Below are positions 7,535-32,000 of a stretch of DNA of 32,000 nucleotides, piece after piece (positions within the stretch are counted from its first letter, which is position 1; each line of letters opens with the position of its first letter). The DNA is taken from positions 1,668-33,667 of the forward strand of contig JAKSVZ010000009.1 of the NCBI GenBank assembly GCA_024407725.1, given 5' to 3'. A model generated the notes under the pieces. That model did no database searches, was not told the DNA's origin, and saw only the letters and a program-made list of their open reading frames with translations. The stretch is from Opitutales bacterium (GTDB lineage: Bacteria; Verrucomicrobiota; Verrucomicrobiia; Opitutales; UBA9783). The position numbers were made by a program, and so were the translations under genes.

Positions 7535-7605
7535 CACAGGGTAATAAAAATTTTCTTATGCGCTTAATGGTTGCAAAACCGTAAAAACTAAAATTAATTA
7601 AAAGT

Positions 7606-8181: not shown

Positions 8182-8223
8182 GAACATTGCTATTTTCCCC
8201 AAAAAACGTTATCCTAATAGTGT

Positions 8224-8664: not shown

Positions 8665-8692
8665 TACTCAATTTTTTGCTTATTCATACCGT

Positions 8693-9574
8693 ATGCAAGG
8701 CATTTACACATCACTCATCACTCCCTTCTACAAAGACAAAGTGGATTATGAATCGCTAGAACGCTTACTGACGTATCAAATTAAATCAAAAGTACAGGGG
8801 CTCATTCTGCTGGATACAACCGGAGAAAATTCAACCTTAGAATCCACTGAGCGCAACGAATTGATTACCTTTATCACTAAAAAGCTTAACCATAAACTGC
8901 CGTTTTTCCTTACCATTGAGGCAAATTGCACGCGTAAGGCCATTCGGTTTATGCATGAACTGGAGCATTTTAAACCCGATGGATTTTTAATGGTCACGCC
9001 CTATTATAACCGTCCTACTCAAAGCGGCCTGTACCTCCATTATGAAGCGCTTGCCAAGGAAACCCGAAAACCGATTTGCTTGCACTCATCCGCATTTCGC
9101 TGTGGAACTGAATTAGCTGTTGATACCATCGACCAATTGCGCCAAGCGTTTCCCGATACCATTATTGCCATTAAAGAATCGGGCAATTCCTGCAACCGCG
9201 TCAGTCAGCTCCTTAAAAACAAACGCAGTCCCTTCCACGTCCTATCGGGAGATGATTCCCTCATCCTGCCATTTTTAGCACTCGGAGCACAAGGAGCCAT
9301 CAGCACAGCCGCCAACTGGATTGCAAAAGAAATGGTTCAACTTTTTACCTTTGTTCAAGCCAACGACCTTGAAAGCGCCGCCCCCATTAACCGAAATTTT
9401 TATCCTTTATTTCGCGCATTGACCGTAGAAACCAACCCTGCCCCTATCAAATACATTTTGTATAAGGCAGGTTGGATCAAAAGCCCAGAAGTCCGTTTGC
9501 CTTTAAGCCCATTATCCGCCAAAAGCATGGCCTTTATTGACCAAATCCTGGAAAAATTAAAAGCCCAGTCTTAA
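8693..9574 (+). CDS. dapA: 4-hydroxy-tetrahydrodipicolinate synthase / DapA-NAL family aldolase
   Basis: GIYTSLITPF N-terminus, TTGE motif (DTTGENSTL), and Schiff-base lysine context IIAIKESG. The ORF track start at 8648 is a TTG; the ATG at 8693 gives a canonical N-terminus. Confidence 0.7.
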   Translation: MQGIYTSLITPFYKDKVDYESLERLLTYQIKSKVQGLILLDTTGENSTLESTERNELITFITKKLNHKLPFFLTIEANCTRKAIRFMHELEHFKPDGFLMVTPYYNRPTQSGLYLHYEALAKETRKPICLHSSAFRCGTELAVDTIDQLRQAFPDTIIAIKESGNSCNRVSQLLKNKRSPFHVLSGDDSLILPFLALGAQGAISTAANWIAKEMVQLFTFVQANDLESAAPINRNFYPLFRALTVETNPAPIKYILYKAGWIKSPEVRLPLSPLSAKSMAFIDQILEKLKAQS

Positions 9575-17900: not shown

Positions 17901-18305
17901 TTACAAAGCGGTATCGACGTAATCACTACACACCAGCAGGTATTTAAACAAGCGGTAAAGCGTAGGTTGATCGCATTCCGTATCTAAAATTTTAGCGAAA
18001 AATCCAATGTCATGATCGGATTGTGCAATCGCCTGCACCTGAAACGTCTCATGTGCGTTTTGCAAGGGCATCGATAAAGCTTTTTCATACATAGCGTAAG
18101 GCAAAGGCGCAAGGTCGTAAGGCTTTATTACAAAGAAAAATATCCACTCGCCGGATTCTTCAATTTGCAACGTACGGTTATCATCCAATATAAACTGGAT
18201 ACACCGCTTATCATTTAACTTCAGGTCTGGGATTCCAATATGATTACCAAACGCTTGTAATTCACTATCAATTAGCATCGTTATTCTCTTCAAAAATTTT
18301 CTCAT
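17901..18305 (-). CDS. SycN-like type III secretion chaperone
   Basis: Aligns by eye with Yersinia SycN as recalled from memory (F...IGIP......IQF.....TLQIEE.G). It sits downstream of TyeA-like and YopN-like genes, the same order as yopN-tyeA-sycN. An alternative ATG is at 18278. Confidence 0.5.
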   Translation of the reverse strand: MRKFLKRITMLIDSELQAFGNHIGIPDLKLNDKRCIQFILDDNRTLQIEESGEWIFFFVIKPYDLAPLPYAMYEKALSMPLQNAHETFQVQAIAQSDHDIGFFAKILDTECDQPTLYRLFKYLLVCSDYVDTAL

Positions 18306-18555
18306 CCAAAAACTCTTGGATGATATTCACAAACTGCATCCGCAATTCATCTTTATCGAAAAGCGAATCGGGATACTGCCGTAAACTTAGGATTAATTGG
18401 GTTAAAAAAAAGATAATGGCCTCACGCGACCGAATCCCCAACGGATGCATCATCTGCACCACCTGTTCTTCATCGAGGTATTTTTTCAAAATCGCATGCA
18501 TCATGGTTTTGGTTATCCCATAGGCTTTTTCACTAACTAAGGAAGGACTTAACAT
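18268..18555 (-). CDS. TyeA-like protein (C-terminal module of the T3SS gatekeeper)
   Basis: 95 aa versus 92 aa for TyeA. Acidic C-terminus, and the pattern R.YP..LF.D.E.R......IQ..LD resembles TyeA as recalled from memory (FRLFPLGVFSDEEQRQNLL). Synteny supports the call. Confidence 0.5.
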   Translation of the reverse strand: MLSPSLVSEKAYGITKTMMHAILKKYLDEEQVVQMMHPLGIRSREAIIFFLTQLILSLRQYPDSLFDKDELRMQFVNIIQEFLDEKIFEENNDAN

Positions 18556-18561
18556 AATACA

Positions 18562-19686
18562 TTAAAATAAACGCGGGAAGGTATCAGCGGTTCGTTGTAC
18601 CATTTGTTCATTGATGGTTTGAACGGTACCTAATTTTTCAACGGTACGGCAGGTATTCGCAATAGCGCTAGCAATAGACGGTTCCGGACAGCTTTTTAAT
18701 TCAGACGACAAACATTTCATCACAATCGATAGATTATCGCTAAAATGAGCAACGGCCGACTTACGGTCTTCAAAATGCTCAACCAAGTTACCCAACAAGC
18801 AATCGAATACCTTCATGGCATCCCCCTTAAGCGGTAAAATCTTATCCAAAATCAACGCATTGAAGTCCTTAGGCGGCAAGGTAATGGAATGCGTTAAATG
18901 TGCAGTGGTTTCGCGTAACAACGGCGCCAAGACGTAACTATCCTCAATACGGTTTCTATCAACCCCCATTAAGCGATCCTGTTCGGATCGGATCGACTTA
19001 ATGCTCTTTTTCAGGTTATCCGCCTGTTGGTTCACGTGATCCTGACTGTCTTGGGAATAGGTAGCAGATTTATCCGGCTGCTTCATCTCTTCCGAAAACT
19101 GTTCGAGTTGGGTTAATTTACGCTCCCATACATCCAAAACAATCTGCAAGGCATTATGCTGCTCCGCAATATCCTCAAACATCATTAAACCGTTACGGAT
19201 ATCATCGAGCGTCAACATTCCGTTCTGCGCCAACGATCCATCCAATTGCTTAAAGAACGAACGATATTGCCGCTCACTCCCTGAAAACAACGCATTAGAA
19301 CGCTCTAAAACCGTCTGTTTTAAGTCCTTAGCCGTTCCATCATTGATCAAGGTTAAACGCTCTAAGGTTTGCTTTTCAACCCGCTTGCTGCGATTATCTT
19401 GTTCATTAACCTTTTTCGAATCCTCTGTCTCAGCAACCGAATTTAAACGCGGAGCACCTTTTTTCGTTTTCGATTTAAACTGTTCTTCTTTAACACTCTT
19501 ATGAGCCTGAAACGAAGACATGCATTCGTCATCCTTCGTACTTGGATCCACATCCATATTCGCTTGGATCGCTTGAGTATCTAACTGACCCTTTTGGACA
19601 CTTGCTCCCTCTTGTACTTCTTCGGTAAACGAAGGCTGTGCTTGCGTAGTCGATTGTGTTTGAAAATTTAATAGTTCTTCGCCCAT
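18562..19686 (-). CDS. putative T3SS gatekeeper SctW (CopN/YopN-like)
   Basis: 374-aa hydrophilic protein with a low-complexity polar N-terminus, directly upstream of the TyeA-like and SycN-like genes. The call rests mainly on synteny. Confidence 0.45.
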   Translation of the reverse strand: MGEELLNFQTQSTTQAQPSFTEEVQEGASVQKGQLDTQAIQANMDVDPSTKDDECMSSFQAHKSVKEEQFKSKTKKGAPRLNSVAETEDSKKVNEQDNRSKRVEKQTLERLTLINDGTAKDLKQTVLERSNALFSGSERQYRSFFKQLDGSLAQNGMLTLDDIRNGLMMFEDIAEQHNALQIVLDVWERKLTQLEQFSEEMKQPDKSATYSQDSQDHVNQQADNLKKSIKSIRSEQDRLMGVDRNRIEDSYVLAPLLRETTAHLTHSITLPPKDFNALILDKILPLKGDAMKVFDCLLGNLVEHFEDRKSAVAHFSDNLSIVMKCLSSELKSCPEPSIASAIANTCRTVEKLGTVQTINEQMVQRTADTFPRLF

Positions 19687-19795: not shown

Positions 19796-20977
19796 ATGAA
19801 AGTTGCTATTTTAACCTCAGGTGGGCTTGCTCCCTGCTTGTCCGCTGCCGTCGGATATTTAATACAGCGTTATCATCTTTTAGACCCAAAAATTGAAATC
19901 ATAGCGTATCTTCACGGATACCAAGGGCTTTTGTTGGGGCAATCAACCGTGTTGTCCGATTACTCAGAAGCTTCCACCTTGCTCCATTTTGGAGGAAGCC
20001 CGATTGGCAATAGCCGCGTTAAATTATCCAACGCATCCGATTGCGAAAAAAAGGGATTAATTGCGTCTGGAGCTAACCCCTTTGAGGTTGCTGCTCAACA
20101 ACTCATCACCGATCACATCGATGTTTTGCACACCATCGGCGGCGATGATACCAGCACAACCGCTGCGGAACTTGCCCACTTCTTAAAGCAACATAACTAC
20201 CCATTAACCATCGTTGGCTTGCCCAAAACCATCGATAACGATATCAACCCAATCCAATTAAGTTTAGGGGCTACCACAGCTGCAGAACAAGGCGCTATTT
20301 TTTTCGAACACGTCGTCAACGAACATACAGCTAACCCCAAAACCTTGGTGGTTCATGAGGTTATGGGACGCCACTGCGGATGGTTAACCTATGAAACCGC
20401 ACGCCAATATACCGAACGCTTACAGCGACGCACCTTTGCCCCTCATTTGGGCTTTTCAAAAGAAGCCTTTGAGTTGCATGCGTTGTATATCCCTGAAATC
20501 GATATCCAATTGGATGCGGAAATCGCTCGTTTACAGCCAAAATTAGACCATATCGGCTCCCTAAACATTTTTGTCAGTGAAGGAGCGTGCGCTAATGTGA
20601 TTGTTCAAGAACTGGAACACAGCGGACAAGCCGTAGAACGCGATGCATTCGGACATGTAAAATTGGATAAAATCAACGCAGGGCAATGGATTGGCGAACG
20701 CTTAGCCAAACGCTTAGGAGCTAAAAAATTGCTGGTACAAAAAAGCGGCTATTTCGCCCGTTCCTCTCAACCTAACGCTTTCGACCTTAACCTAATCCAA
20801 GCTTATGTTGATTACGCCGTTGAATGCGCCTTCAACAAACAAAGTGGATTGATCGGCCAAGACGAACGCTTCGGCGGACAATTACGCTCCATCGAATTTG
20901 AAGCGATTTCAGGCGGTAAACCCTTGAATATCAAAGACCGCGCGGTACAAACGTTCATCAACAGCTTAAATCAGTAA
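19796..20977 (+). CDS. pfp: pyrophosphate-dependent 6-phosphofructokinase (PfkA family)
   Basis: MKVAILTSGGLAPC start. GGDDT (not GGDGS) and PKTIDND (Lys, not Gly) are the residues usually diagnostic for PPi rather than ATP use. Confidence 0.75.
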   Translation: MKVAILTSGGLAPCLSAAVGYLIQRYHLLDPKIEIIAYLHGYQGLLLGQSTVLSDYSEASTLLHFGGSPIGNSRVKLSNASDCEKKGLIASGANPFEVAAQQLITDHIDVLHTIGGDDTSTTAAELAHFLKQHNYPLTIVGLPKTIDNDINPIQLSLGATTAAEQGAIFFEHVVNEHTANPKTLVVHEVMGRHCGWLTYETARQYTERLQRRTFAPHLGFSKEAFELHALYIPEIDIQLDAEIARLQPKLDHIGSLNIFVSEGACANVIVQELEHSGQAVERDAFGHVKLDKINAGQWIGERLAKRLGAKKLLVQKSGYFARSSQPNAFDLNLIQAYVDYAVECAFNKQSGLIGQDERFGGQLRSIEFEAISGGKPLNIKDRAVQTFINSLNQ

Positions 20978-21084
20978 GTGGATAATACCCGCTCAACCTA
21001 TAGTCAGCTTATATTGAGCTGACCAATGGAATTAGGTGTGGATAGGGTTTATTAGTAGCCGCAAAAAGCAGAAAAACATTAAAG

Positions 21085-21179
21085 CTTGACTTACATAGCC
21101 AAATAGGATATAAGTCTTTTGCTACCTGTAATCCTTATAGAATTAATTTTATTGTAATAAGAACGTAATAAAAGTCAAG
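21085..21179. repeat. convergent-promoter cassette u1 (95 bp)
   Basis: Bounded by AAAG-CTTGAC ... GTCAAG-GAAAAA. Plus end: TTGACT (21086-21091), 17-bp spacer, TATAAG (21109-21114). Minus end: TTGACT (rc of 21173-21178), 16-bp spacer, TACAAT (rc of 21151-21156). No ORF. Confidence 0.6.
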
Positions 21180-21227
21180 GAAAAATATACTTTAATCTCA
21201 CCGATAAAAAGCCAAGAGCATTTAAAA

Positions 21228-21324
21228 CTTGACAAAATAAAGTTTTATCTTACAATCACAATTAATGCATTTATTGAACATATGGCTCAATCTTATTTTA
21301 AAGATTGATACCATTAATGTCAAG
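21228..21324. repeat. convergent-promoter cassette u2 (97 bp)
   Basis: AAAA-CTTGAC ... GTCAAG-AAAAAA. Plus end: TTGACA (21229-21234), 16-bp spacer, TACAAT (21251-21256). Minus end: TTGACA (rc of 21318-21323), 17-bp spacer, TAAAAT (rc of 21295-21300). It abuts the hairpin at 21326-21354. Confidence 0.6.
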
Positions 21325-21354
21325 AAAAAAGCCTCACTTTTGGTAAGGCTTTTT
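21263..21354 (+). ncRNA. candidate ~90-nt small RNA from the u2 plus-strand promoter to the bidirectional terminator
   Basis: Predicted start about 7 nt after TACAAT. The end is the A-tract/stem/T-tract hairpin. No start codon or ORF. Purely predicted. Confidence 0.3.
21326..21354. terminator. bidirectional intrinsic terminator (gap 3' end, minus strand; u2 transcript, plus strand)
   Basis: AAAAAGCCT-cacttttggta-AGGCTTTTT: a 9-bp stem flanked by A5 and T5, 8 nt beyond the gap stop codon. Confidence 0.7.
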
Positions 21355-21361
21355 AAAACTT

Positions 21362-22411
<1,050 letters not shown>

Positions 22412-22619
22412 CTATTAAAATCGTAAAGAATGCGAATAGATGTCTTAACCCTCATCCTACCCCATCGCTAAAAAGCATAAAGAGACTTAAAGGAACCACA
22501 AAGCACTCGCATTAGGAACCAAAACCTTAAGCCATCGCAAGCATTTCCCTGCTAAATTTAGTCCTAACACAACATCCTATAACTTAGTCGGACGCCTAAA
22601 AAAGATTGATGAAAACAGG

Positions 22620-22715
22620 CTTGACTTTTATCCTTATTAGGAATATAAATATATTCCTACTTTTGTGAATAGATTTGAATAATATTCTTATATAAGATCT
22701 TGTAAATAAGTCAAG
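22620..22715. repeat. convergent-promoter cassette u3 (96 bp)
   Basis: Plus end: TTGACT (22621-22626), 17-bp spacer, TATAAA (22644-22649). Minus end: TTGACT (rc of 22709-22714), 16-bp spacer, TATAAG (rc of 22687-22692). The interior resembles u9. The right flank is nearly identical to those of u10 and u11. Confidence 0.6.
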
Positions 22716-22751
22716 ATAAAAGCAAACCTGCAGGTACGCAGGTTGTTTTTT
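22656..22751 (+). ncRNA. candidate ~96-nt small RNA (u3 promoter to terminator)
   Basis: Near-consensus promoter, no ORF, and a 3' module CTTGTAAATAAGTCAAGATAAAAGCAAACCTGCAGGTACGCAGGTTGTTTTTT shared with u10 and u11. Predicted only. Confidence 0.35.
22725..22751. terminator. intrinsic terminator hairpin AACCTGC-aggtac-GCAGGTT + T-run
   Basis: 7-bp GC-rich stem followed by GTTTTTT on the plus strand. On the minus strand the same stem is followed by TGCTTTTATC, so it could also terminate the 22800-23756 ORF. Repeated at 31663-31690 and 31985-32000. Confidence 0.65.
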
Positions 22752-22799
22752 GTCAATGATTGATTCCACTGGTATCTGAAATAGAGCAGGATTTGTTCG

Positions 22800-23931
22800 C
22801 TAAAAGGGAACATCTTCGTCGTTGTCAGAAGATTGTTCAGGGTTCTGCAATTTATCCTCTGAAAAACTTGAATTTAACAACAGGTTCAATTTAAAAGCAT
22901 TCGTCAAAAAATTTATTGTGCTGCAAGTAAGCTCTACAACGTAGCGTGCTTGGTATTTCTTTACACATGCATTCACATCATGAGCAGTACTAGCTATGTT
23001 TCTTAATTCCTTAACTCCCGTAAAGATATTAGCATATGGATCCTCTTTAATTGGATCTATACATTGTTGAAGCGTGCACAAGGCACCTATAGCCAGCCCA
23101 ATCCCTTGTTTTTCTACTTCATCTAGGTATAAAGAATTCAAGCTTTTATCAAGGTTTTGATGTTTAAGTAAGTTTTGCAAATAATCGATTATGTCTCCCC
23201 ATGAATTTTTATTCTTTTTGAAAACCTTATTAAAAACAATTTCACATAACACTTTTAAAAAGCGTGTTAACGACAATTTACAATACAGTAACACTGCATC
23301 ATATTTATCATGTTCTAATAAGTCTAGTATTTCAATAATCCTACTACCAACTACCTGATTGCACCAAATGGGGAGAGAAATATTAAGGATCGGAAATTCA
23401 ATTAAGTCTGTAATTTTAACCCCATCGTCTGAAAAATGATATTCCAATCTGAAATGATATTTATTCCACAATTTAAAATTGACTGCTCCAATAATTACCC
23501 GACAAAAATTATAATAATTTTCATCATAAACATTTTTTATCAGTTTCTTAAAAAAATCTGGGTTTTTTTCGTCAGGCGCCGATTGCAAGCGATTCAAATT
23601 AAACAAATCAGTTAATATTTTCAAGACTCTCTTGGAGGAGTCTTTTTGCGTAGAATTTATACAACCGCTTATCGTACGTTGATATAAATCAAACGCTTTC
23701 AACCAATGCCCATTACCCCAATCATAACATCTCTCAGAAACATCCATGAGAGGCATCTGAACCGCTTTCCAAGGTTTTCTAGATCCTTGAATGGACGCTG
23801 GCCAATCAATATTTTTAGGAAGACTTTTTTCCTCAGCTAAATATCGCGCAACAATGGGGGGGGATGGATTTTGTTCCGGTCAAATAACCAACAATTTCCT
23901 CATCCAGCAAACACTTCCATTTGTTTTCCAT
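22800..23931 (-). pseudogene. Abi_C-like protein gene interrupted by a C8 homopolymer frameshift (intact 318-aa ORF 22800-23756 plus a 5' segment to the ATG at 23931)
   Basis: The C-terminal block GVKELRNIASTAHD...ARYVVELTCSTINFL, and upstream LEHDKYDAVLLYCKLSLTRFLKVL, resemble the Abi_C pattern (D-Y-D..helix...LRN..g.aHG...). The reading frame upstream of Met-23756 stays open and protein-like to 23880. An ATG at 23931 (MENKWKCLLDEEIVGYLTGTKSIPP) joins it if the run at 23856-23863 is 7 rather than 8 nt. Confidence 0.5.
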
Positions 23932-24034
23932 TCCCCTACCCTACCTGCTCTATTCCAAAAAGCAAGATAAATTCTAGGTAAAAGGGCTGTTTTTGATTGA
24001 AATGCATGCTGACCGTGCAGCATATTTTAAAAAG

Positions 24035-24133
24035 CTTGACTTATATCGTTAATAAGTATAAACTTTGTATTGAAACAATGGAAACAATAGGAAATTAAGT
24101 TAATTAATAACATAATTGTCTCCCCACGTCAAG
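24035..24133. repeat. convergent-promoter cassette u4 (99 bp)
   Basis: AAAAAG-CTTGAC ... GTCAAG-CCAAA. Plus end: TTGACT (24036-24041), 17-bp spacer, TAAACT (24059-24064). Minus end: TTGACG (rc of 24127-24132), 17-bp spacer, TATTAA (rc of 24104-24109). Confidence 0.55.
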
Positions 24134-24249
24134 CCAAATCAGATTTTTTGCATTTACCCCCTACTAAATACAATGGATTTAGCGTACAGGAAACGCCATC
24201 ATCAATCTCTGTGATTGAAGCCCAGAAACCGGATAGATTCGATAAAAAG

Positions 24250-24346
24250 CTTGACAAAGGTATTACTTTTAGGGAAAAATGATTTATTGACAATTGATAC
24301 AGTAATATTCAATAATATCGTAGCCAATTCTTGTACCGTAGTCAAG
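24250..24346. repeat. convergent-promoter cassette u5 (97 bp)
   Basis: AAAAAG-CTTGAC ... GTCAAG-TAAAAAA. Plus end: TTGACA (24251-24256) with only a weak -10 (AAAAAT at 18 bp). A second internal TTGACA (24287-24292) has an 18-bp spacer to AATAAT. Minus end: TTGACT (rc of 24340-24345), 17-bp spacer, TACGAT (rc of 24317-24322). Followed by a weak hairpin AACCC-N12-GGGTT + T6 (24352-24380). Confidence 0.5.
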
Positions 24347-24548
24347 TAAAAAACCCACGCACAGCCGAGGGTTGTTTTTTCCCATTTTTCCACTCATTAT
24401 AAGCCAAAAGCACAAACCTTAGGCGGTAAAAACGTTATTTTGTTGATCGAAAACACGCGCGGTTAGATTATCTTTAGAAGTTATCTTGAGAGGTTTTGCT
24501 TAATTGCAACACCCCAAACGTTTACCCTGCTCTGAATTTTAATAAAAG

Positions 24549-24643
24549 ATTGACAAATAGGTTATTTTTGAAATAATAATTCTATTGGACAACCTACAAT
24601 AATGCTTCACATTTATTGTATAAAATCTTATACAAAAGTCAAG
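24549..24643. repeat. convergent-promoter cassette u6 (95 bp)
   Basis: AAAAG-ATTGAC ... GTCAAG-CAAAAG. Plus end: TTGACA (24550-24555), 16-bp spacer, AATAAT. Minus end: TTGACT (rc of 24637-24642), 16-bp spacer, TACAAT (rc of 24615-24620). Confidence 0.55.
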
Positions 24644-24880
24644 CAAAAGTGTTTTAAAAGGCACAAATACCCATAAATCCAAAGACATTTGTAAAACAAT
24701 CCATTCAGGTGATACAGTGGGGCTGTAATAACCACACCATAGCTAAACCAACACCTTGTTTCAAGGTATATAAGCCCAAGAATCCTAGAAAAAACACAAC
24801 TTAAGAACGCATTACGCGCCTACCGAGTTCACATTCCAATCAAACAAGAACCCCTAGCGGTATTTCTTTTAAAAAATTTC

Positions 24881-24958
24881 TGGTGGACGGTGTAGGATTC
24901 GAACCTACGACCCCCCGGATGTAAACCGGATGCTCTAACCGCTGAGCTAATCGTCCCC
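24881..24958 (-). tRNA. tRNA-Val (anticodon TAC), CCA encoded
   Basis: The reverse complement reads GGGGACGATTAGCTCAGCGGTTAGAGCATCCGGTTTACATCCGGGGGGTCGTAGGTTCGAATCCTACACCGTCCACCA. Anticodon loop TTTACAT, T-loop TTCGAAT. Confidence 0.9.
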
Positions 24959-25013
24959 TATTAAAAAATAAAAACTTAACCTCTAAGGAAGCAATCCCTG
25001 CAATCCCTAAAGA

Positions 25014-25244
25014 TTACTCGCCGTCATCGCCAATAGCGTTAACAGGACAAGTTTCTTTCGCCTCCATGCAACGCTCAACTTCGCCTTCCAAAGACGGTTG
25101 TTTCTTTACATAGGAAGCTCCATCGCTTGTAAAATCAAACACCTCAGGAGCGATGTTGTGGCACATTCCACAATGAATGCATTGATTATCGACGTAAAAA
25201 CGACCGCGTACGTTTTCTGAAAGTTTATCCTCTTTAACAGCCAT
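25014..25244 (-). CDS. small [4Fe-4S]/[3Fe-4S] ferredoxin
   Basis: CIHCGMC ... CPVNAI cluster motifs, about 76 aa. The ORF track start at 25259 is a TTG; the ATG is at 25244. Confidence 0.8.
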   Translation of the reverse strand: MAVKEDKLSENVRGRFYVDNQCIHCGMCHNIAPEVFDFTSDGASYVKKQPSLEGEVERCMEAKETCPVNAIGDDGE

Positions 25245-25341
25245 GATTTCATTACACAAAGCCCACTTGTACCGTCAAGCAGATTTATAAATATCCACAA
25301 AAGCTAGGCTTTAGGGGGGTATTTTTGCTAAAATAAAGTAA

Positions 25342-26697
25342 ATGATTCATTTAGAACAAAGCCAAACACAATCGCAGGTATTGGCGCCCCAACTACGGCA
25401 GTCGCTCAAAATTCTGCAAGCATCCGCTATGGATTTAAAGGCTTTTGTTCAAGAAGAATTAACCAACAATCCAACCCTTGAGGAAATCCCCAGTTCATCG
25501 AGCAAAGAACCTACCGATTCCATCGCTAACGGAGCAGAATGGAGCTCCAACTATGCCAACGATACTTCAGAAGCAAGCCAACGGCACGATTTCCTATTAA
25601 ATTCACTGCAAAGTGAAGTGTCCCTCCAAAGCCATCTGCAGGAGCAGGTTGGATGTTTGGATTTAAGCAAAAAGCTTAAGGAACTGGTTCTGTTCATCAT
25701 TGGAAGCCTCAACCAAAAGGGGTTTTTGGATAGCTCCATCGATGAACTCATGCGCCAAACAGGATGCGATTACGATACACTCATGCACGCGTTATCGATT
25801 GTGCAGCAACTAGATCCTGTTGGTGTAGGCTGTTTTGATATTCCTTCCAGCCTCATGGCGCAATTGACCTATCAGCAAAAAGAGCATTCCCTCGCATTCA
25901 AAATCATTTCCCAATGTTATCCCCTTTTGTTGCACAATAAGCTGAACGATATTGCGCGCGCCTGTTCCGCAAGTCTAAAAGACGTACAAGCCGCTATCCG
26001 CAACGATATTGCGCCTCTCAATCCAGCACCTGGAAGCGCTTACGCCCATCACCCCTCCCCTATCATCATTCCCGATGTAAAAATTTACAAAAATCCGTCC
26101 AACGAATGGGTCGTGGAGTTAAATCACACCTACATTCCTCAATTGCGCATTGGTTCTAACTACAAAGACTTACTGGCTCAAAACATTGATGCGAATGATC
26201 GGCGCTATCTCCAAATTAAAATGCGCTCCGGACGCTTTCTCATTCAAGCCATCCTTCAGCGACAAAAAACCATTGAACGTATTTCACAGGCCATTTTGCA
26301 GTATCAACAAGACTTCTTTGACCATGGGGTCGCTTACTTAAAACCCTTAACCCTACAAACATTGGCAGAGTTTTTAAACCTGCACGAAACCACCATTAGC
26401 CGCGCAACCGCCAACAAATACGTCGACACCCCCTTCGGAGTCTTTAGATTTAAGTATTTTTTTACCAAAGGGTTAGCGCGCCATAATACCGACGAAAGTA
26501 TTTCCAATGCGGTTATTAAGCAGGAACTGCGCAAGCTGATTGACCATGAAGACAAACAGCACCCCTTAAGCGATCAAGCGATGGTTGAGTTGTTCAAGAA
26601 TAAACAAATTCAAATCGCACGCCGCACGATCACTAAATACCGTAAGCAATTAGGAATTTTGCCTGTTCACATGCGCCGACAATACAGCGCATCATAA
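25342..26697 (+). CDS. rpoN: RNA polymerase sigma-54 factor
   Basis: N-terminal Gln/Leu-rich region I (QSQTQSQVLAPQLRQSLKILQ), an HTH, and the RpoN box ARRTITKYRKQLGI. Confidence 0.9.
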   Translation: MIHLEQSQTQSQVLAPQLRQSLKILQASAMDLKAFVQEELTNNPTLEEIPSSSSKEPTDSIANGAEWSSNYANDTSEASQRHDFLLNSLQSEVSLQSHLQEQVGCLDLSKKLKELVLFIIGSLNQKGFLDSSIDELMRQTGCDYDTLMHALSIVQQLDPVGVGCFDIPSSLMAQLTYQQKEHSLAFKIISQCYPLLLHNKLNDIARACSASLKDVQAAIRNDIAPLNPAPGSAYAHHPSPIIIPDVKIYKNPSNEWVVELNHTYIPQLRIGSNYKDLLAQNIDANDRRYLQIKMRSGRFLIQAILQRQKTIERISQAILQYQQDFFDHGVAYLKPLTLQTLAEFLNLHETTISRATANKYVDTPFGVFRFKYFFTKGLARHNTDESISNAVIKQELRKLIDHEDKQHPLSDQAMVELFKNKQIQIARRTITKYRKQLGILPVHMRRQYSAS

Positions 26698-26718
26698 AAG
26701 GCATAACAAGGCAAAAAG

Positions 26719-26815
26719 CTTGACAAATTAGTCAAATTAAATTATCATCTGTATTGGAATACGGGGATGATAAGGATAATGATTTAATTTTATTTATATT
26801 TAACATTAAGTCAAG
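26719..26815. repeat. convergent-promoter cassette u7 (97 bp)
   Basis: AAAAAG-CTTGAC ... GTCAAG-CTAAAAG (8-bp inverted repeat AGCTTGAC/GTCAAGCT). Plus end: TTGACA (26720-26725), 17-bp spacer, TATCAT (26743-26748). Minus end: TTGACT (rc of 26809-26814), 16-bp spacer, TAAAAT (rc of 26787-26792). Confidence 0.6.
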
Positions 26816-26896
26816 CTAAAAGCTAGCGATCAGTTCTTACCTATTCCGCAACTAAAGCTAACAGTCAATAATTCATTTTCTTACAGCACAATTTAC

Positions 26897-26978
26897 CCTG
26901 CTTGCTATAAGCAGGTTTATTGTAAAATAATTACATACAATAATCAAGCAAAACCAGAGCCAAACACTGGCTGTTTTT
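26897..26978. repeat. truncated cassette u8 (right half only) with flanking hairpins
   Basis: Degenerate right end AATCAAG-CAAAA. Minus-strand TTGATT (rc of 26942-26947), 17-bp spacer, TACAAT (rc of 26919-26924). The left half is replaced by the hairpin CCTGCTT-gctat-AAGCAGG (26897-26915). A weak hairpin AGCCA-aacac-TGGCT + GTTTTT lies at 26958-26978. Confidence 0.4.
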
Positions 26979-27065
26979 GAATTCCCCTTTGCACCGAAAC
27001 TTCCATGCTCCTATAAAAAGCCTTGCCTCCGAACAAGGTTAGGCTTAAGGTAAGCGCAATACTGT

Positions 27066-28244
27066 ATGAACTTGCATGAGTATCAGGCGAAAGCCTTATT
27101 GGAATCGTTCCAAATCCTCATTCCAAGTGGTGTATGCATTCAAGAAGCCACTCCTGAAAACCTAGCTACCGTTAAAGACACCTTTAAAAATCACGCACAG
27201 GTAGCGGTTAAAGCGCAAATTCATGCGGGGGGGCGCGGCAAAGGACAGTTTAAAGAAAACGGGAAAGCGGGAGTGCAATTGGTTTCAGGCGATTGCCTAG
27301 AAGAAGCCATTACTTCCATGCTTCATAACACCTTAGTCACCAAACAAACGGGAGCGGAAGGGCAAAAAGTTAACGCGGTATACGTTACGGAAGTCCTGCA
27401 CCACACAAAAGCGTTTTACCTATCGATTTGTATTGATCGCGCGCATCAATGTCCGGTGGTGATAGCCTCGCGACAAGGAGGAGTTGATATTGAAACAGTA
27501 GCAGCCACGCATCCTGACCAAATTATCCGTCTACCCATCAATCCCAGCGTTGGGCTTTGTCATTTTCAAGCGCGAGCAATTGCCAACTGTTTTCAACTCA
27601 CTGGGTCGGCTTATACGCACTGTATTCAAACAGTTCTTAACCTATACAAGGCATTTGTAGCGCTCGATGCGACCCTCATTGAAATCAATCCGTTGGTATT
27701 AAGTGATCAACAGCAAATGGTAGCGCTCGATTCAAAGGTGCAAATCGATGACAATGCGTTATTTCGAAGTTCTATTCCGCCGTCGCTCGTACCGATTCAA
27801 TCGCCCACCCAAGCATCCACGAAAGAAGCACCTAGTTCGGTTATTCGCTTTGACGGAAACATCGCCTGTTTGTCGAATGGTGCGGGTCTATGTATGGCGA
27901 CCCTTGATCTTTTGCATCAATTAGGGGAGCAAGCATCCTGCTTTATCGATCTAGGAGACAGCGCATCGGAGCAAAAAATCGATTCTATTTTAGACATGCT
28001 TTTAACGGATTCGCAATCCAAGGGGGTGCTTATCAACGTCTTTGGTGGAACTTTCCCGTGCGATATACTGGCGCAACGCTTGATTCAAAAAATCCAGCAG
28101 CACCGCCCAACAAAACCCATTCAGGTGCGTTTGGAGGGCAACAAAAGCGAAGAAGCGCGTGAGTTGTTAAAAACCGCGCCGGTTACCTTCATGGATGACT
28201 TGCAACAAGCAATCCAAAACCTTTTACAATCGGTATCCCTATGA
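27066..28244 (+). CDS. sucC: succinate--CoA ligase subunit beta
   Basis: MNLHEYQAK start and ATP-grasp region. 392 aa, with an ATGA overlap with sucD. Confidence 0.9.
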   Translation: MNLHEYQAKALLESFQILIPSGVCIQEATPENLATVKDTFKNHAQVAVKAQIHAGGRGKGQFKENGKAGVQLVSGDCLEEAITSMLHNTLVTKQTGAEGQKVNAVYVTEVLHHTKAFYLSICIDRAHQCPVVIASRQGGVDIETVAATHPDQIIRLPINPSVGLCHFQARAIANCFQLTGSAYTHCIQTVLNLYKAFVALDATLIEINPLVLSDQQQMVALDSKVQIDDNALFRSSIPPSLVPIQSPTQASTKEAPSSVIRFDGNIACLSNGAGLCMATLDLLHQLGEQASCFIDLGDSASEQKIDSILDMLLTDSQSKGVLINVFGGTFPCDILAQRLIQKIQQHRPTKPIQVRLEGNKSEEARELLKTAPVTFMDDLQQAIQNLLQSVSL

Positions 28245-29125
28245 ATTGTTTGAATATCGATCCTCAACCGCGTGTGTTAGTACAAGGCATTACTGGACAT
28301 GCAGGATTGTTACATTCTAAATTATGTTTGGAGTATGGAACCAACATTGTAGCGGGAGCTACTCCGGGAAAAGGTGGGCAGTATGTACACAGCAACATTC
28401 CGGTGTTTAATTCCGTTGCAGAGGCCTGTCGTGAAACAGCGCCCACTGTATCGATGATCTTTGTTCCGGCTCCTTTTGCAACCGATGCTATTTATGAAGC
28501 GATTGATGCTAAAATTCCGCTGATTGTTTGCATTACCGAAGGGATTCCAGTGCAGGACATGCTGCGTATTCAATCGGTACTCAAAGGCACTCAAACGCGC
28601 TTAATTGGCCCCAATTGCCCAGGGATTTTGGCTCCCAATCGCTATAAAATCGGTATTATGCCAGGCGCTATTTTCAAAGCTGGTTCGGTCGGGCTTGTTT
28701 CCCGCTCTGGAACGTTAATGTTTGAAGCAGCGTGGCAATTGAGCACGCTAGGTTATGGGCAATCGATGGCAATCGGTATTGGAGGCGACCCGATCAATGG
28801 CACGTCCTACCAAGATGTTTTGCGGTATTTCAATGAAGATCCTGCAACCAAAGGCATTGTGTTGATAGGCGAAATCGGCGGTATTAGCGAAGAACAAGCG
28901 GCGGATTACATCCGTCAGTCGGTTCGCAAACCAGTGGTAGCTTATATTGCGGGTCAAACCTTACCCTCAAACCAGCGCATGGGACATGCAGGAGCGATTA
29001 TTGAAGGGAATAAGGGGACTGCAGCGCAAAAAATCGAAGCGCTTAAAGCAGCCGGTGTTTATATTGCTCCAACGGTAACCGACATAGGCAAGACCTATGC
29101 TCAGGCCATTCAAAGCATCCAATAA
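28241..29125 (+). CDS. sucD: succinate--CoA ligase subunit alpha
   Basis: VQGITG, SRSGTL, and the phosphohistidine loop MGHAGAII. Confidence 0.92.
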   Translation: MNCLNIDPQPRVLVQGITGHAGLLHSKLCLEYGTNIVAGATPGKGGQYVHSNIPVFNSVAEACRETAPTVSMIFVPAPFATDAIYEAIDAKIPLIVCITEGIPVQDMLRIQSVLKGTQTRLIGPNCPGILAPNRYKIGIMPGAIFKAGSVGLVSRSGTLMFEAAWQLSTLGYGQSMAIGIGGDPINGTSYQDVLRYFNEDPATKGIVLIGEIGGISEEQAADYIRQSVRKPVVAYIAGQTLPSNQRMGHAGAIIEGNKGTAAQKIEALKAAGVYIAPTVTDIGKTYAQAIQSIQ

Positions 29126-29142
29126 AGTATATTAAGGAAAAC

Positions 29143-29220
29143 TGGCGGGATGGACGAGACTCGAACTCGCGACCTCCTGCGTGACAGGCAGGCGTTCTAA
29201 ACCAGCTGAACTACCACCCC
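29143..29220 (-). tRNA. tRNA-Asp (anticodon GTC), CCA encoded
   Basis: The reverse complement reads GGGGTGGTAGTTCAGCTGGTTTAGAACGCCTGCCTGTCACGCAGGAGGTCGCGAGTTCGAGTCTCGTCCATCCCGCCA. Anticodon loop CTGTCAC. Acceptor GGGGTGG/CCATCCC with one G-U pair. Confidence 0.9.
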
Positions 29221-29233
29221 CAGCTTGTTGGTT

Positions 29234-29270
29234 ATCATCCGGATCGGAAGGACAAGTGTCAATCTTTTTA
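29234..29270 (-). promoter_or_regulatory. predicted tRNA-Asp promoter with upstream A-tract
   Basis: The minus strand reads ATAAAAAGA-TTGACA (rc of 29257-29262), 17-bp spacer, GATGAT (rc of 29234-29239), about 13 nt upstream of the mature tRNA 5' end. It has the same A-tract + TTGACA arrangement as the cassette left ends. Confidence 0.5.
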
Positions 29271-29370
29271 TCCAACATTTCTCGTTTCGAATTGATTTAA
29301 AAGCGGCGGTAATCCTTTAGCTTGAAAAAGCTTTTGCTTCCCATTAAAGTTTTTTCTCCAGAAAGAATTT

Positions 29371-30141
29371 ATGGTCAACGCACTGGTGGCTATTGGTTTG
29401 TTGTTGTTAGGAAGCCTTATAGGCAGCATTTTAAATTGCTGCATTGATCGTTGGCCGCGTCATAGCAGTCCTTTTCACACGGAACAAGCCACCGCAAGGC
29501 AATGGATGCCGTTCATCCTGATTTGGGCGCTCATTAAACGGAACGCGGGAGGTTCATCCATTCCCAAACGTTATGTTGTCACCGAAATACTCACTGGAAT
29601 CGTTGCCATTCTAACCTATCAATGGATGCCGTCGCTTGCTATTCCGTATTTTGTTCTCTTTTGCATCCTATGGGTGGCAACCTGCACGGATTTAGAAACT
29701 TGGATCATTTCAGATGCCTGTACGCTCACAGGGATTGCGCTTGGCGTTATGCTCAGCGCTTGCTACCCGTCGTTGCATTGGACAAGCGACCGTATGGCGA
29801 GCGTTGTTCTCAGTTTACAAGGCATGTGCTGGGGAACAGGTGGATTGTTTCTAATGACCAGTTTTATTGAATGGTTCATGCGAAAAGACGCTATGGGCTT
29901 AGGCGATGTTAAGCTCATTGGCTGCATCGGTGCTTTTTTAGGCTGGGAAGGATGCGTCTGGAGTTTGTTCGTTGGGTCTCTCTTAGGAACGCTCTTTGTT
30001 TGCCTGCGTACGCTTCATCCCAAAAATCGCCAACGTCAGTTGCTGATCCTTAAGCATGCCATTCCATTCGGCCCGCATTTAGCTGCCGCTGCCTTGCTGT
30101 TTATTCCCTATCAACACTTCGTGCTCATGGGTCTGGGTTAA
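29371..30141 (+). CDS. prepilin peptidase (A24 family; GspO/PilD-like)
   Basis: Polytopic membrane protein with the GLGDVKL catalytic-Asp motif and IPFGPHLAAAAL near the C-terminus. Confidence 0.8.
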   Translation: MVNALVAIGLLLLGSLIGSILNCCIDRWPRHSSPFHTEQATARQWMPFILIWALIKRNAGGSSIPKRYVVTEILTGIVAILTYQWMPSLAIPYFVLFCILWVATCTDLETWIISDACTLTGIALGVMLSACYPSLHWTSDRMASVVLSLQGMCWGTGGLFLMTSFIEWFMRKDAMGLGDVKLIGCIGAFLGWEGCVWSLFVGSLLGTLFVCLRTLHPKNRQRQLLILKHAIPFGPHLAAAALLFIPYQHFVLMGLG

Positions 30142-31107
30142 ACCGAACGCCTGTTGAAAGAAATGCGTTAAGGTCAGGGCAACATTCAGGACGAACTGAG
30201 CATGGTAGGATTCCAACTGAAAGGTTTGGGCTAATTCATCAGTTTTGCCATGGGCATCACCCGCATGATTCCTCAACGAACCGACTCCGCGCACCGTAAA
30301 TGCCAACACTTGGCAAACGCTATTGGTGAGGCTGTCGGACAAACGATAAAAGCGTTCGCTTAAATCCGGAGCGGAATGCAAGGACTTATGGCATCGAATA
30401 AACGCCTGATATAACTTCGGCAACGGTTCACTTGCCACGCGCTCCAATTCCTTCGGCGGACAAGTCTTACTTAAAACCTGCTTTAGGACGCTTTCCAACA
30501 ACGTACGCGCTTGGGTTAAAACGGTATCGTAATCCCCCTGAATCAACGCTTGTTGGCCGCGCCGGATACTCCGGTCAATCGGACCGCTGGGGTATACTAT
30601 TGGGTCAACCCCATACGATTGGGATACCACAATCCATTGAAAGTTTTGAAATCCCCCATCGCTGGCTTGTGCCTGCAACGCACGATCGTATAAATACAAA
30701 ATAGCATTGATAGCCTTCAACACCCGATCGCAAACACCCTGATAAACCCGCTTGCTTTGTGTTAACAACTGAGGGCTTTGTAAATTCGCAAAGGGCGCGC
30801 TTGCTATAAAACGTTCAAAGCTAAAAAAGTAAGGCAATAAGGCTAAAACCTTGCCCTTATCCGCCGCCATCTTCAACACCCGTTTGCAATAACCATACGG
30901 GGTTTCTAAACCGGTGCAATTGCCCATGAATCCAAGCTGTTTACAGGCGTCATCCAACCCACGCTTATGAACCAACGGCAGTTGAATCGGCCAATCCGCT
31001 CCATCAATCGTGAGCATACCTAAAGGATACTTTTGTGGCACACCGGCCAAAATCGCCACAATACGCGGGTCACAAACAAATCGATTCTCAAAATTAAGCC
31101 CCTGCAT
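30079..31107 (-). CDS. abortive-infection family protein (Abi_C-like C-terminal domain)
   Basis: IQGDYDTVLTQARTLLESVLKQVL ... LPKLYQAF ... GVGSLRNHAGDAHGKTDE ... YHAQFVLNVALTLTHFF matches my recollection of the Abi_C (PF14355) pattern well. The N-terminal ~170 aa are unassigned. Confidence 0.6.
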   Translation of the reverse strand: MQGLNFENRFVCDPRIVAILAGVPQKYPLGMLTIDGADWPIQLPLVHKRGLDDACKQLGFMGNCTGLETPYGYCKRVLKMAADKGKVLALLPYFFSFERFIASAPFANLQSPQLLTQSKRVYQGVCDRVLKAINAILYLYDRALQAQASDGGFQNFQWIVVSQSYGVDPIVYPSGPIDRSIRRGQQALIQGDYDTVLTQARTLLESVLKQVLSKTCPPKELERVASEPLPKLYQAFIRCHKSLHSAPDLSERFYRLSDSLTNSVCQVLAFTVRGVGSLRNHAGDAHGKTDELAQTFQLESYHAQFVLNVALTLTHFFQQAFGLTQTHEHEVLIGNKQQGSGS

Positions 31108-31350
31108 GCAGAAATTGTAGGATTAAAATGACCCCCTGTCAATGAAAAATAAGAAACAAGCATGCAAGCCCTGCGCACACGCAAACAAGGCTAAAAAGGG
31201 CTAAAAATCAGCGTTTTTTACTAAAATTTTCGGTCAGCAAAAAGATACTCAACCTACGAAAGCCATTCCATCGGTAATACTTTCAGGTCATGATTCAACA
31301 CAACCAATACTATAAAAAGGAATTTACGATAAGCGCCCCTATTAAAAAGG

Positions 31351-31447
31351 CTTGACTTTTACCTTAAATAGAGGTAAAAGAATGTTCCTGCATTTGTTAA
31401 TAGATTCGAATATTATTTTTTTATATACAATCCCCTAAAAAGTCAAG
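31351..31447. repeat. convergent-promoter cassette u9 (97 bp)
   Basis: AAAAAGG-CTTGACTTTT ... AAAAGTCAAG-CAAAAA (11-bp inverted repeat). Plus end: TTGACT (31352-31357), 17-bp spacer, TAAAAG. Minus end: TTGACT (rc of 31441-31446), 15-bp spacer, TATAAA (suboptimal spacing). It contains a 9-bp hairpin CTTTTACCT/AGGTAAAAG. The interior is related to u3. Followed by a 12-bp bulged hairpin at 31465-31501. Confidence 0.55.
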
Positions 31448-31554
31448 CAAAAACCAAAACGAGATTGCAAAAGCTTCTGTAATCAGGTGGAAGTTTTGCA
31501 ACCCAAGATGGGTATCCTTCACCCTATTTTACCCTATAGGAGGAGCAAAAAACG

Positions 31555-31653
31555 CTTGACAAAGCTAGCAAATTTTAGATATTAAAAATAATTGCATTTT
31601 TCACAGCAGTGTTTACGAGGAAATTTATAATAAAACCTTGTAAATAAGTCAAG
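31555..31653. repeat. convergent-promoter cassette u10 (99 bp)
   Basis: AAAAAACG-CTTGAC ... GTCAAG-ATAAAAG. Plus end: TTGACA (31556-31561), 16-bp spacer, GATATT (31578-31583). Minus end: TTGACT (rc of 31647-31652), 17-bp spacer, TATAAA (rc of 31624-31629). Confidence 0.6.
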
Positions 31654-31690
31654 ATAAAAGTAAACCTGCAGGTACGCAGGTTGTTTTTTT
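31590..31690 (+). ncRNA. candidate ~100-nt small RNA (u10 promoter to terminator)
   Basis: A variable 5' part followed by the conserved module CCTTGTAAATAAGTCAAGATAAAAGTAAACCTGCAGGTACGCAGGTTGTTTTTTT. No ORF. Predicted only. Confidence 0.35.
31663..31690. terminator. intrinsic terminator, second copy of the AACCTGC/GCAGGTT hairpin + T7
   Basis: Identical stem-loop to 22725-22751, followed by GTTTTTTT. Confidence 0.65.
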
Positions 31691-31876
31691 GTCAACATTG
31701 ATTCCGCATCTGAAATACAACTTGAATAAACAGATACCCTTGCGCACGAAATTATGCAGGAATGGGTCTAAAAAATAGGTTATTTTGATTGGGGGATCTC
31801 AAAGTTGCCTTGTTATCGTCATTCGCAAAAAAGCACTGGTAGATAAAATTACCTAACGTAATGGAGCAAGAAAACG

Positions 31877-31975
31877 CTTGACAAAGCTATCAGTTTTTAG
31901 ATAATGCAACTATTGCATTTCTCGCAGAAAAATTTAAGCAAGTTTTTTATAATAAAACCTTGTAAATAAGTCAAG
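31877..31975. repeat. convergent-promoter cassette u11 (99 bp)
   Basis: Tandem copy of u10, 322 bp downstream. Plus end: TTGACA (31878-31883), 16-bp spacer, GATAAT (31900-31905). Minus end: TTGACT (rc of 31969-31974), 17-bp spacer, TATAAA (rc of 31946-31951). The hairpin restarts at 31985 and is cut by the window end. Confidence 0.6.
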
Positions 31976-32000
31976 ATAAAAGTAAACCTGCAGGTACGCA

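Follow-up and report, generated by a model that had tools for sequence, protein, structure and literature searches.

A small putative accessory defence islet of an uncultured Opitutales bacterium carries predicted Abi_C/AbiJ-family genes and an undescribed, clade-restricted intergenic cassette

Results

The islet and its cassettes

The stretch analysed here, 32,000 nucleotides from an uncultured Opitutales bacterium (assembly GCA_024407725.1, contig JAKSVZ010000009.1, positions 1,668 to 33,667; referred to as the window), has an overall GC content of 42.7%. After pfk and gap it carries an AT-rich open reading frame (ORF), which we name Abi1, followed by tRNA-Val, a ferredoxin gene (fdx), rpoN, sucC, sucD, tRNA-Asp, a prepilin peptidase gene and a second Abi gene, Abi2. 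The spacers of this region contain ten copies of a short cassette (u1 to u7 and u9 to u11; Table 1), both ends of which resemble promoters that face each other. We take the region to be a small accessory defence islet, and the cassette family is an undescribed, clade-restricted repeat. Our tentative interpretation is that the cassettes are boundary and control modules of decaying arrays of Abi gene units.

A cassette consists of CTTGAC, 83-87 bases and GTCAAG, which amounts to 95-99 bp overall with an AT-rich interior. A relaxed scan (TTGAC, 83-87 bases, GTCAA) retrieved ten units of 93-97 nt in one orientation, which all cassettes share with the Abi genes, and a strict asymmetric pattern gave six matches in the window, all on the plus strand, and none in 100 shuffles. 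The cassettes of the window lie 143-322 bp apart from start to start and are dissimilar inside, with two promoter-like ends each. One of them, u3, is a mosaic with a u9-like left part and a u10/u11-like right part, while u4 and its flanks are homologous to the cassette found upstream of Abi2 in sister strains.

Using an nhmmer profile built from 18 cassettes, we detected no further full-length copy in the window, positions 1-20 kb being empty, and a single half-copy. The same profile found nothing in the cassette-free lineage described below nor in 63 kb of more distant relatives (100 kb of relatives). For public sequences we applied the pattern GCTTGACWWN{79,86}AGTCAAGNNAAAA. Among genome representatives, which did not include the source genome, it matched 52 loci, all of them single scattered matches that lacked the features of a cassette, with no true multi-cassette locus; in metagenomes it matched at least 120 loci and in viral contigs 3, and those listed were single, chance-like matches. 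Since the public matches look like chance and the distant relatives are empty, the family appears to be confined to a narrow clade. At gathering score Rfam 15 returned tRNAs only, and nothing relevant was found at E up to 1 over positions 20900-32000.

The half-copy (26909-26954, nhmmer E 0.02) is weak and lies in the insert between rpoN and sucC together with two terminator-like hairpins (26897-26972); the conserved sucC promoter region starts only past these elements. A 23-mer of u3/u10 had zero matches in the viral scan. The 17-mer GGTATAAGTCAAGCTTT, an end motif of the sister strains, had 61 matches in viral contigs (L191-L251), none with cassette structure. These belong mostly to one conserved, coding-like stretch of related contigs that is unrelated to the cassettes, a result that cautions against scanning with short motifs.

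Table 1. Coordinates of the islet features (positions of the window)
Feature	Position	Strand	Remarks
pfk	19796-20977	plus	
u1	21085-21179	minus	convergent pfk-gap spacer; orthologous by position to the single cassette of L184, L186, L189 and L252
u2	21228-21324	minus	convergent pfk-gap spacer
gap	21362-22408	minus	
Strain-specific insert, 2448 bp	22431-24878		between gap upstream region and tRNA-Val 3' end; contains u3, Abi1, u4-u6
u3	22620-22715	minus	downstream of Abi1; nhmmer E 1.8e-16
Hairpin AACCTGCAGGTACGCAGGTT and T-run	22725-22751	both	terminator-like, stronger for plus-strand RNA; between Abi1 stop and u3
Abi1, continuous part, 318 aa	22800-23756	minus	C-terminal HEPN motif RNIASTAH
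Abi1, probable original 5' part	23757-23931	minus	now out of frame (three-frame translation)
C8 homopolymer (G8 on plus)	23857-23864	minus	causes the frameshift
Hairpin H2 (ATGCTG..CAGCAT)	24003-24024	minus	between u4 and Abi1
u4	24035-24133	minus	nearest the Abi1 start; nhmmer E 1e-16
u5	24250-24346	minus	
Terminator-like hairpin and T6	24361-24381	plus	right of u5
u6	24549-24643	minus	left end ATTGAC, one mismatch from consensus
tRNA-Val (TAC)	24881-24956	minus	insert starts 2 nt past the tRNA 3' end
u7	26719-26815	minus	in a 318-bp window-specific insert between rpoN and sucC
Abi2	30079-31107	minus	intact AbiJ-type gene
Abi2 promoter-like site TTGACA-17-TACAAT	31114-31142	minus	stops 6 nt before ATG
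u9	31351-31447	minus	upstream of Abi2
u10	31555-31653	minus	upstream of Abi2
Deletion scar between u11 and u10	31690-31790	minus	Abi2-leader homology fused to Abi1 3' tail and terminator homology
u11	31877-31975	minus	upstream of Abi2

Cassette anatomy

The left ends of the cassettes read aAAAGCTTGAC(AA/TT) and the right ends AGTCAAGnnAAAA. Both ends contain TTGAC[ATG], 16-18 bases and a second hexamer, whose first base is T in 17 of 20 ends and whose second base is A in 20 of 20. An earlier note on this DNA had described a minus-strand promoter in each of u4-u6 that points toward the gene, and a promoter-like TTGAC[TAG]-16-18-TAnnnn is indeed present on this strand in each cassette. The promoter-like sites of tRNA-Asp and trxB in the window show the same AAAGATTGACA form. 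Since both strands carry spaced promoter hexamers, the cassette reads as two facing sigma-70 promoters, with predicted start sites ~25 bp apart if the usual geometry applies. The motifs fit both strands in 10 of 10 window cassettes and, judged by eye, also in the sister-strain copies. In the following, P_in denotes the putative promoter aimed at the Abi gene and P_out the opposite one, which is the end preceded by an A-tract. Canonical terminators with T6-7 runs, oriented for P_out, lie directly right of u2, u3, u5, u10 and u11 (5 of 10), so that the P_out RNA of these five copies would be ~90-100 nt long.

Alignment of copies across contexts revealed that the repeated unit exceeds the cassette. 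It comprises ~180 bp with conserved flanks on both sides, u4 included, in the order left flank GGTAGGTGTAAAATATYCGATTTAG, cassette and right flank GCTTTTTTGAATATACTGCACAGTCAGTACGCAT, the latter with the small hairpin H2; the CTTGAC/GTCAAG inverted pair is internal to this unit. In sister strains H2 reads TACTG..CAGTA, with one pair running through G:C, G:U and A:U, and it is broken in L252. Another hairpin, H1 (8-12 bp, CTTATACC..GGTATAAG), is found in one cassette subtype, where it overlaps the -35 and -10 elements of P_out. A compensated H1 variant, CTTTTACCT/AGGTAAAAG, occurs in u9, and six window cassettes of the other subtype have no H1. Folding gave neither a common nor a whole-length hairpin for the cassettes, just a terminal pair of 6-10 bp and unrelated local hairpins in the interiors.

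Between strains with 95-96% identical coding regions, cassette ends and flanks are 83-100% identical, whereas the central ~50 nt are just 33-62% identical across those same strains. On the P_in strand this core is somewhat enriched in pyrimidines (C 106 vs G 58; T 168 vs A 128), and in closely related strains it is identical or nearly so. As close strains share their cores and u3 is mosaic, we take the core to have diverged through exchange between paralogous cassettes together with relaxed constraint, rather than through hypermutation.

Abi1 and its relatives

The impression that the ORF at 22800-23931 is more AT-rich than its neighbours was right, as the computed GC content is 34.3% against 43.8% for gap and 44.8% for rpoN. 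Its description as one ORF does not hold: the length of 1132 nt is not divisible by 3 and the C8 run breaks the frame. The frame from the ATG at 23931 (MENKWKCLLDEEIVGYLTGTKSIPP) stops soon after this run, deletion of one C from it restores an Abi1 protein of 376 amino acids (aa), and in tblastn residues 1-25 and 24-376 fall in different frames. Because an independent Logan assembly of the same sequencing run (contig L183) has the identical G8, the frameshift is taken as real. It makes Abi1 either a pseudogene or, with a slippery tract, a gene in its off state. A homologue in L182 has a C8 run at the equivalent ..PPIV.. site, but in frame. In this closest homologue (L182 1044-2134) the frame is likewise broken, which leaves two ORFs, of 132 and 246 aa, that overlap; the break adjoins an A7 run at a position unlike that of the window's frameshift. 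Abi1 and its relatives seem to be a small family that is repeatedly inactivated at homopolymers.

An Abi_C-like C-terminus had been noticed in Abi1 by eye, and the Pfam search agrees, albeit marginally: the match to Abi_C (PF14355) covers residues 242-285, ELRNIASTAHD included, and reaches 25.3 bits (24.8 for the frame-corrected form), only ~1 bit above the gathering cut-off of 24 bits. The closest Abi1 homologues fall short of this threshold altogether, and neither Abi1 nor the L189 homologue had a match in PADLOC at E up to 1. When 1.84 billion representative proteins were searched exhaustively with phmmer, only two relatives came up (246 aa with 45% identity, and a 94-aa fragment), and a word-indexed search of 5.8 billion proteins returned Abi1 itself only. 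Based on these searches, Abi1 appears to be a near-orphan protein. As it is only 39-41% identical at the protein level to the Abi1-like genes on the BacA side, the Abi1 islet beside tRNA-Val is considered a separate diverged member and not a recent copy.

The surroundings of Abi1 are largely as reported before. Its stop is followed by a hairpin (22725-22744) and then by u3, and the whole hairpin with its T-run recurs after u10 and u11. The ~950-bp spacer that holds u4-u6 (23932-24880) contains one ORF of at least 60 aa, a 63-aa ORF starting with GTG, and is in this sense devoid of a credible gene.

Abi2 and the Abi_C/AbiJ family

The layout recurs at Abi2, as the earlier note had pointed out: u9-u11 lie upstream of a second Abi_C gene, which matches Pfam Abi_C with 36.3 bits and PADLOC AbiJ at 4.7e-20 and belongs to a cluster of 17 members at 90% identity or more. 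Its promoter-like site, which is close to consensus, is conserved in sister strains as TTGACA-17-TA(C/A)AAT (L186 6268-6305). No Shine-Dalgarno sequence was seen before the Abi2 ATG and, since the promoter-like site ends 6 nt before this codon, the Abi2 mRNA is probably leaderless. At its 3' end Abi2 overlaps the convergent prepilin peptidase gene by 63 nt (30079-30141). This overlap is kept in all Abi2-carrying strains, and the cassette-free lineage retains a trace of it inside the peptidase gene.

Abi1 and Abi2 had been regarded as unrelated-looking, but a profile-profile comparison (hhalign) aligns them over 218 columns (E 7.4e-5, probability 62%), and BLASTP aligns the RN..AH block. The HEPN motif Rx4-6H reads RNIASTAH in Abi1 and RNHAGDAH in Abi2; its R, N and H are kept in the intact homologues P0122 and L189, while R is lost in the remnant P0123. 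On sequence grounds, both proteins belong to the Abi_C/AbiJ family. AbiJ proteins combine a C-terminal HEPN ribonuclease (RNase) domain with variable N-terminal domains, proposed to be sensors, and are single-protein systems (PMC3710099); the distant homology of Abi1 and Abi2 fits this domain layout. Single-sequence AlphaFold2 models of Abi1 and Abi2 were unusable (mean predicted local distance difference test, pLDDT, of 34 and 41), with almost all-helical structures predicted, and a sequence search of the PDB with the Abi proteins gave zero matches.

Presence and absence in sister strains

Syntenic contigs were reached via gap homologues and cover ~150 kb of the clade. The relatives L054 and L055 are ~88-89% identical to the window at the DNA level and collinear with it between secDF and BacA. 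They have neither of the two Abi genes and no cassette at all, with clean junctions: the pfk-gap spacer measures 79 bp versus 384 in the window, the rpoN-sucC spacer 83 bp versus 368, and BacA directly follows the prepilin peptidase gene. In place of the insert that contains Abi1 (22431-24878), L054 has 4 bp between flanks that are 88-89% identical. The insert is also absent from L184, L186, L189 and L252, where the fdx-gap spacer is ~185 bp, so this 2.45-kb block beside tRNA-Val was either inserted or is retained in this strain only. With blastn it had zero matches in phage and plasmid records, no tRNA-derived direct repeat was seen by eye at its far end, and the comparison of filled and empty sites yielded no convincing target-site duplication, the boundary not being clean. 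In L054, gap begins 44 bp downstream of tRNA-Val on the same strand, and a single transcript may span both. The insert parts the two in the window, where the nearest promoter-like site upstream of gap is the minus-strand end of u3.

For Abi2 we compared the carrying assemblies L185, L186/L187, L189, L252 and L253/L255 (91-96% identical), taken from the 17-sequence cluster. All seven have a 99-bp cassette ~200 bp upstream of Abi2 in the orientation of the window. In L184, L186/L187, L189 and L252, which cover the pfk-gap spacer, a cassette also occupies this spacer at the u1 position without an Abi gene nearby, and L184, L186 and L252 hardly differ in its core. Where Abi1-like genes or their 3' remnants occur, a cassette follows 45-65 bp past the stop codon. 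L189 has the ~180-bp unit in one more setting as well, between PYNP and BacA. The boundaries between presence and absence lie 28-235 bp outside the cassette ends. The caveat that the cassette-Abi linkage could be incidental was justified insofar as copies do reside next to gap and between rpoN and sucC, but the co-occurrence in seven assemblies and the joint absence elsewhere indicate that the link is real across strains.

The Abi1 leader as probable array debris

Sister strains carry, in this order, BacA, an Abi1-like gene or what remains of it, cassette, leader, Abi2 promoter and Abi2. In L186 a tandem duplication covers the cassette, the final 28 codons of an Abi1-like gene and that gene's 3' tail. 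In the window, the scar between u11 and u10 joins leader and tail sequence where a promoter and a gene would be expected, and sequence that matches the 3' tail of Abi1-like genes lies upstream of u4. By tblastn we found no Abi gene remnants between u4-u6 or u9-u11, the scars being seen at the DNA level only. We infer a repeated unit that would consist of cassette, leader, promoter, Abi gene, 3' tail and terminator; deletions would have removed genes from arrays of such units. What was described as a 0.9-kb leader of Abi1 is probably the debris of such a tandem cassette-plus-Abi array and not one 5' untranslated region, and the DNA upstream of Abi2 would likewise be what is left of an array.

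These observations bear on the earlier proposal of a protein plus non-coding-RNA module, in which three cassettes per gene would form a set of RNA partners. The Abi_C family assignment and a genuine repeat tied to the genes stand. The three-RNA partnership is not supported: deletion scars lie between the cassettes, the copies between gap and pfk have no Abi gene nearby, and Abi2 has a promoter of its own. Given the scars in the inter-cassette spacers, history is the simplest reason for there being several cassettes per gene. Shared unit structure together with past deletions best accounts for the association of cassettes with Abi genes.

Neighbouring genes

In L189 an Eco47II-type restriction gene (two ORFs) and a C5 DNA methylase gene (7038-8827) lie between sucD and the prepilin peptidase gene, where they occupy the position of the window's tRNA-Asp and adjoin the Abi islet. 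As these restriction-modification genes border the islet, we regard the neighbourhood as a defence-gene hotspot. Farther away, three neighbouring minus-strand genes (17901-19686) encode a 374-aa protein without Pfam match, a TyeA-like protein (31.1 bits) and a CesT/SycN-like chaperone (28.2 bits); the trio resembles a type III secretion gatekeeper operon and its arrangement is kept in all sister strains. Positions 1-5730 (minus strand) contain four tandem paralogues of ~505-535 aa with a period of ~1.57 kb and blocks of 62-81% DNA identity, to which neither Pfam nor NCBIfam assigns a family.

Discussion

A proposed facing-promoter module at potentially toxic genes

Taken as a whole, our preferred reading is a defence islet in which the cassettes serve as facing-promoter boundary and control modules of decaying Abi unit arrays. 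We hold it tentatively, as it falls somewhat short of being probable. Each cassette end would be a sigma-70 promoter, with P_in directed at the Abi gene and P_out in the opposite direction, and their transcripts would be complementary over the first ~25 nt. The cassette would form the upstream boundary module of an Abi unit, several units having since lost their gene. Such a module would most likely throttle or insulate the expression of a toxic RNase, and could do this by promoter competition, by polymerase collision or by antisense pairing of the 5' ends. We favour a role in control or insulation because P_in and P_out cannot be occupied independently at this spacing, because the transcripts would pair over ~25 nt, because one product would be a short terminated RNA and because the downstream genes encode potentially suicidal RNases. 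The persistence of a cassette alone between gap and pfk speaks against the module being an obligate partner of the protein.

Several observations weigh against this reading. Promoters and terminators were called by their match to a consensus, and in this AT-rich DNA a scan gave 41 sites versus 25.6 expected; several -10 hexamers end in G or A, not in T. Abi2 has its own promoter 6 nt from the ATG, so that a leader from P_in is not needed, and there is no toxic gene on which the copies in the gap-pfk and rpoN-sucC spacers could act. A P_out terminator is not evident in the sister-strain cassettes when their sequences are read by eye, H1 and H2 are not universal (six window cassettes and L252, respectively), and the cassette distribution is drawn from the ~150 kb of the clade covered here. 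If the facing-promoter reading is true, single-gene toxic defence proteins would be equipped with a compact, reusable control-and-boundary module, and the islet would show how units duplicate, swap cores and lose genes. It would also be a concrete example of suicidal RNases kept silent without a protein antitoxin, and accessory gene units of uncultured Verrucomicrobiota could then be recognised by the cassette sequence.

Alternative explanations

The cassettes could instead be a selfish or recombination-prone intergenic repeat, comparable to miniature inverted-repeat transposable elements or repetitive extragenic palindromic sequences, which fills permissive variable spacers and whose promoter-like ends are incidental or self-serving. 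We consider this unlikely, even though four kinds of site are occupied, two of them between housekeeping genes, the unit with its conserved flanks turns up in yet another context in L189 (between PYNP and BacA), and mosaic copies exist. Moreover, assemblies tend to break at cassettes (L183 inside u4, L001 inside u10, L182 at the flank), which suggests many copies per genome. However, neither a target-site duplication nor a terminal repeat can be defined at the unit boundaries, the inverted CTTGAC/GTCAAG pair being internal to the 180-bp unit, and no transposase gene was found nearby. The repeat is missing from positions 1-20 kb of the window and from 100 kb of relatives, its orientation relative to the Abi genes is uniform, and ends, -10 positions and length are conserved while the core is not, which argues for functional selection in place. 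Even if it were only a selfish repeat, the cassette would account for the long AT-rich spacers and the contig breaks in these metagenome-assembled genomes.

Somewhat more doubtful is the view that the cassettes are free-standing genes of trans-acting small RNAs with targets elsewhere, their proximity to Abi genes reflecting shared residence in variable DNA. Candidates would be the ~95-nt P_out RNAs at the canonical terminators or pyrimidine-rich P_in RNAs of ~70 nt ending in H1 and a U-run. The complete architecture of promoter, short body and terminator at u2, u3, u5, u10 and u11 is in line with such genes, as are the pyrimidine bias of the core on the P_in strand and the gap-pfk copy, which is stable in four other assemblies and nearly constant in its core in L184, L186 and L252. 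On the other hand, Rfam has no match even at E up to 1, the fold is not conserved across copies and half of the copies have no terminator. In addition, the supposed seed differs wholly between copies, so there would be no common target.

It is improbable that the cassette RNAs are dedicated partners of the HEPN proteins (type III-like antitoxin, sensor or guide) within one defence system. Cassettes co-occur strictly with Abi2 in all other examined carriers and with Abi1-type genes, both are jointly absent from L054 and L055, and a fast-changing core between conserved ends could determine specificity. Against a strict partnership, the core varies while Abi2 does not: with Abi2 remaining 95-96% identical, RNA and protein do not co-vary. 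The units are separated by 100-300 bp and have promoters of their own, which does not correspond to tandem processed repeats, their multiplicity is accounted for by the deletion scars, and cassettes occur without any Abi gene. AbiJ has furthermore been described as a single-protein system with N-terminal domains as proposed sensors (PMC3710099), and the insert shows no similarity to phage or plasmid records. We see just as little probability in the most far-reaching version, namely a new RNA component of AbiJ-type defence, in which an RNA or duplex transcribed from both strands of the core would set the specificity or threshold of the HEPN RNase as antitoxin, decoy or guide, the core diversifying under phage pressure while the protein stays constant.

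The attC sites of integrons have the core RYYYAAC..GTTRRRY. That the cassettes are attC-like sites of an integron-like array with Abi genes as cargo is hardly credible, since the copies are scattered over four loci and no tyrosine recombinase or integrase is encoded in the window or the examined loci, despite an array that alternates repeat and gene with some units empty, a cassette length within the attC range, ends (GCTTGAC..GTCAAGC) one compensated change away from the attC core, and chromosomal integrons being reported as stores of defence genes (bioRxiv 10.1101/2024.07.02.601686).

Comparison with known systems

Among the proteins, the resemblance to AbiJ/Abi_C (PF14355) lies in a C-terminal R-N-x5-H within the Abi_C match and a variable N-terminal region, both present in the two window proteins, and in genes that stand alone in variable, defence-type neighbourhoods, such as the islet of L189 with its adjoining Eco47II-type system. 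Abi1 differs in its score of ~1 bit over the cut-off, the missing PADLOC match and the frameshift; for both proteins the role as RNase and in defence is a prediction from sequence.

For the cassettes, attC sites were considered and rejected. There is a terminal pair of 6-10 bp only, without a second inverted box or a whole-length hairpin, the ends read GCTTGAC/GTCAAGC and not RYYYAAC/GTTRRRY, and the insertion boundaries are 28-235 bp off. Type III toxin-antitoxin systems (ToxIN, AbiQ/antiQ) resemble the islet in that their abortive-infection RNase gene is preceded by non-coding repeats and a terminator, but there one promoter serves short, identical tandem repeats that are processed by the toxin. 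This class was rejected as well, as the cassettes are ~97 bp long, dissimilar inside, 143-322 bp apart from start to start, equipped with two promoter-like ends each and accounted for by deletion scars. The Correia elements of Neisseria are AT-rich repeats of ~100-150 bp that lie between genes and have inverted ends with promoter-like hexamers. The cassettes are likewise short, AT-rich and dispersed between genes with inverted, promoter-like ends; unlike Correia elements, they have no boundary inverted repeats or target duplications that we could find, their interiors are not conserved, and few copies were seen, with a strong bias towards Abi genes.

Closer to the facing-promoter reading are two systems of transcriptional control. 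In the Ecl18kI restriction-modification system, facing promoters limit expression of the toxic R gene through competition and slow promoter escape (PMC2760811). As in our case, this is a defence locus in which facing promoters would curb the transcription of a toxic partner; in contrast, Ecl18kI has an operator to which its methyltransferase binds, and each of its promoters serves a protein gene, whereas P_out of the cassettes would produce a short non-coding RNA only. In IS10, the first 35 nt of the 69-nt RNA-OUT pair with the 5' end of RNA-IN (PMC5006887). The cassettes differ from IS10 in that they have no transposase, in that 100-300 nt separate the overlap from the Abi start downstream, so that no ribosome-binding site is covered, and in being a many-copy module that also occurs without a downstream gene. 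Nevertheless, the arrangement resembles the pIN/pOUT pair of IS10: the promoters face each other at a distance of tens of bp, the two transcripts share a complementary 5' stretch (35 nt in IS10, ~25 nt predicted for the cassettes), and one of them would be a short terminated RNA while the other enters a gene that would be harmful if overproduced.

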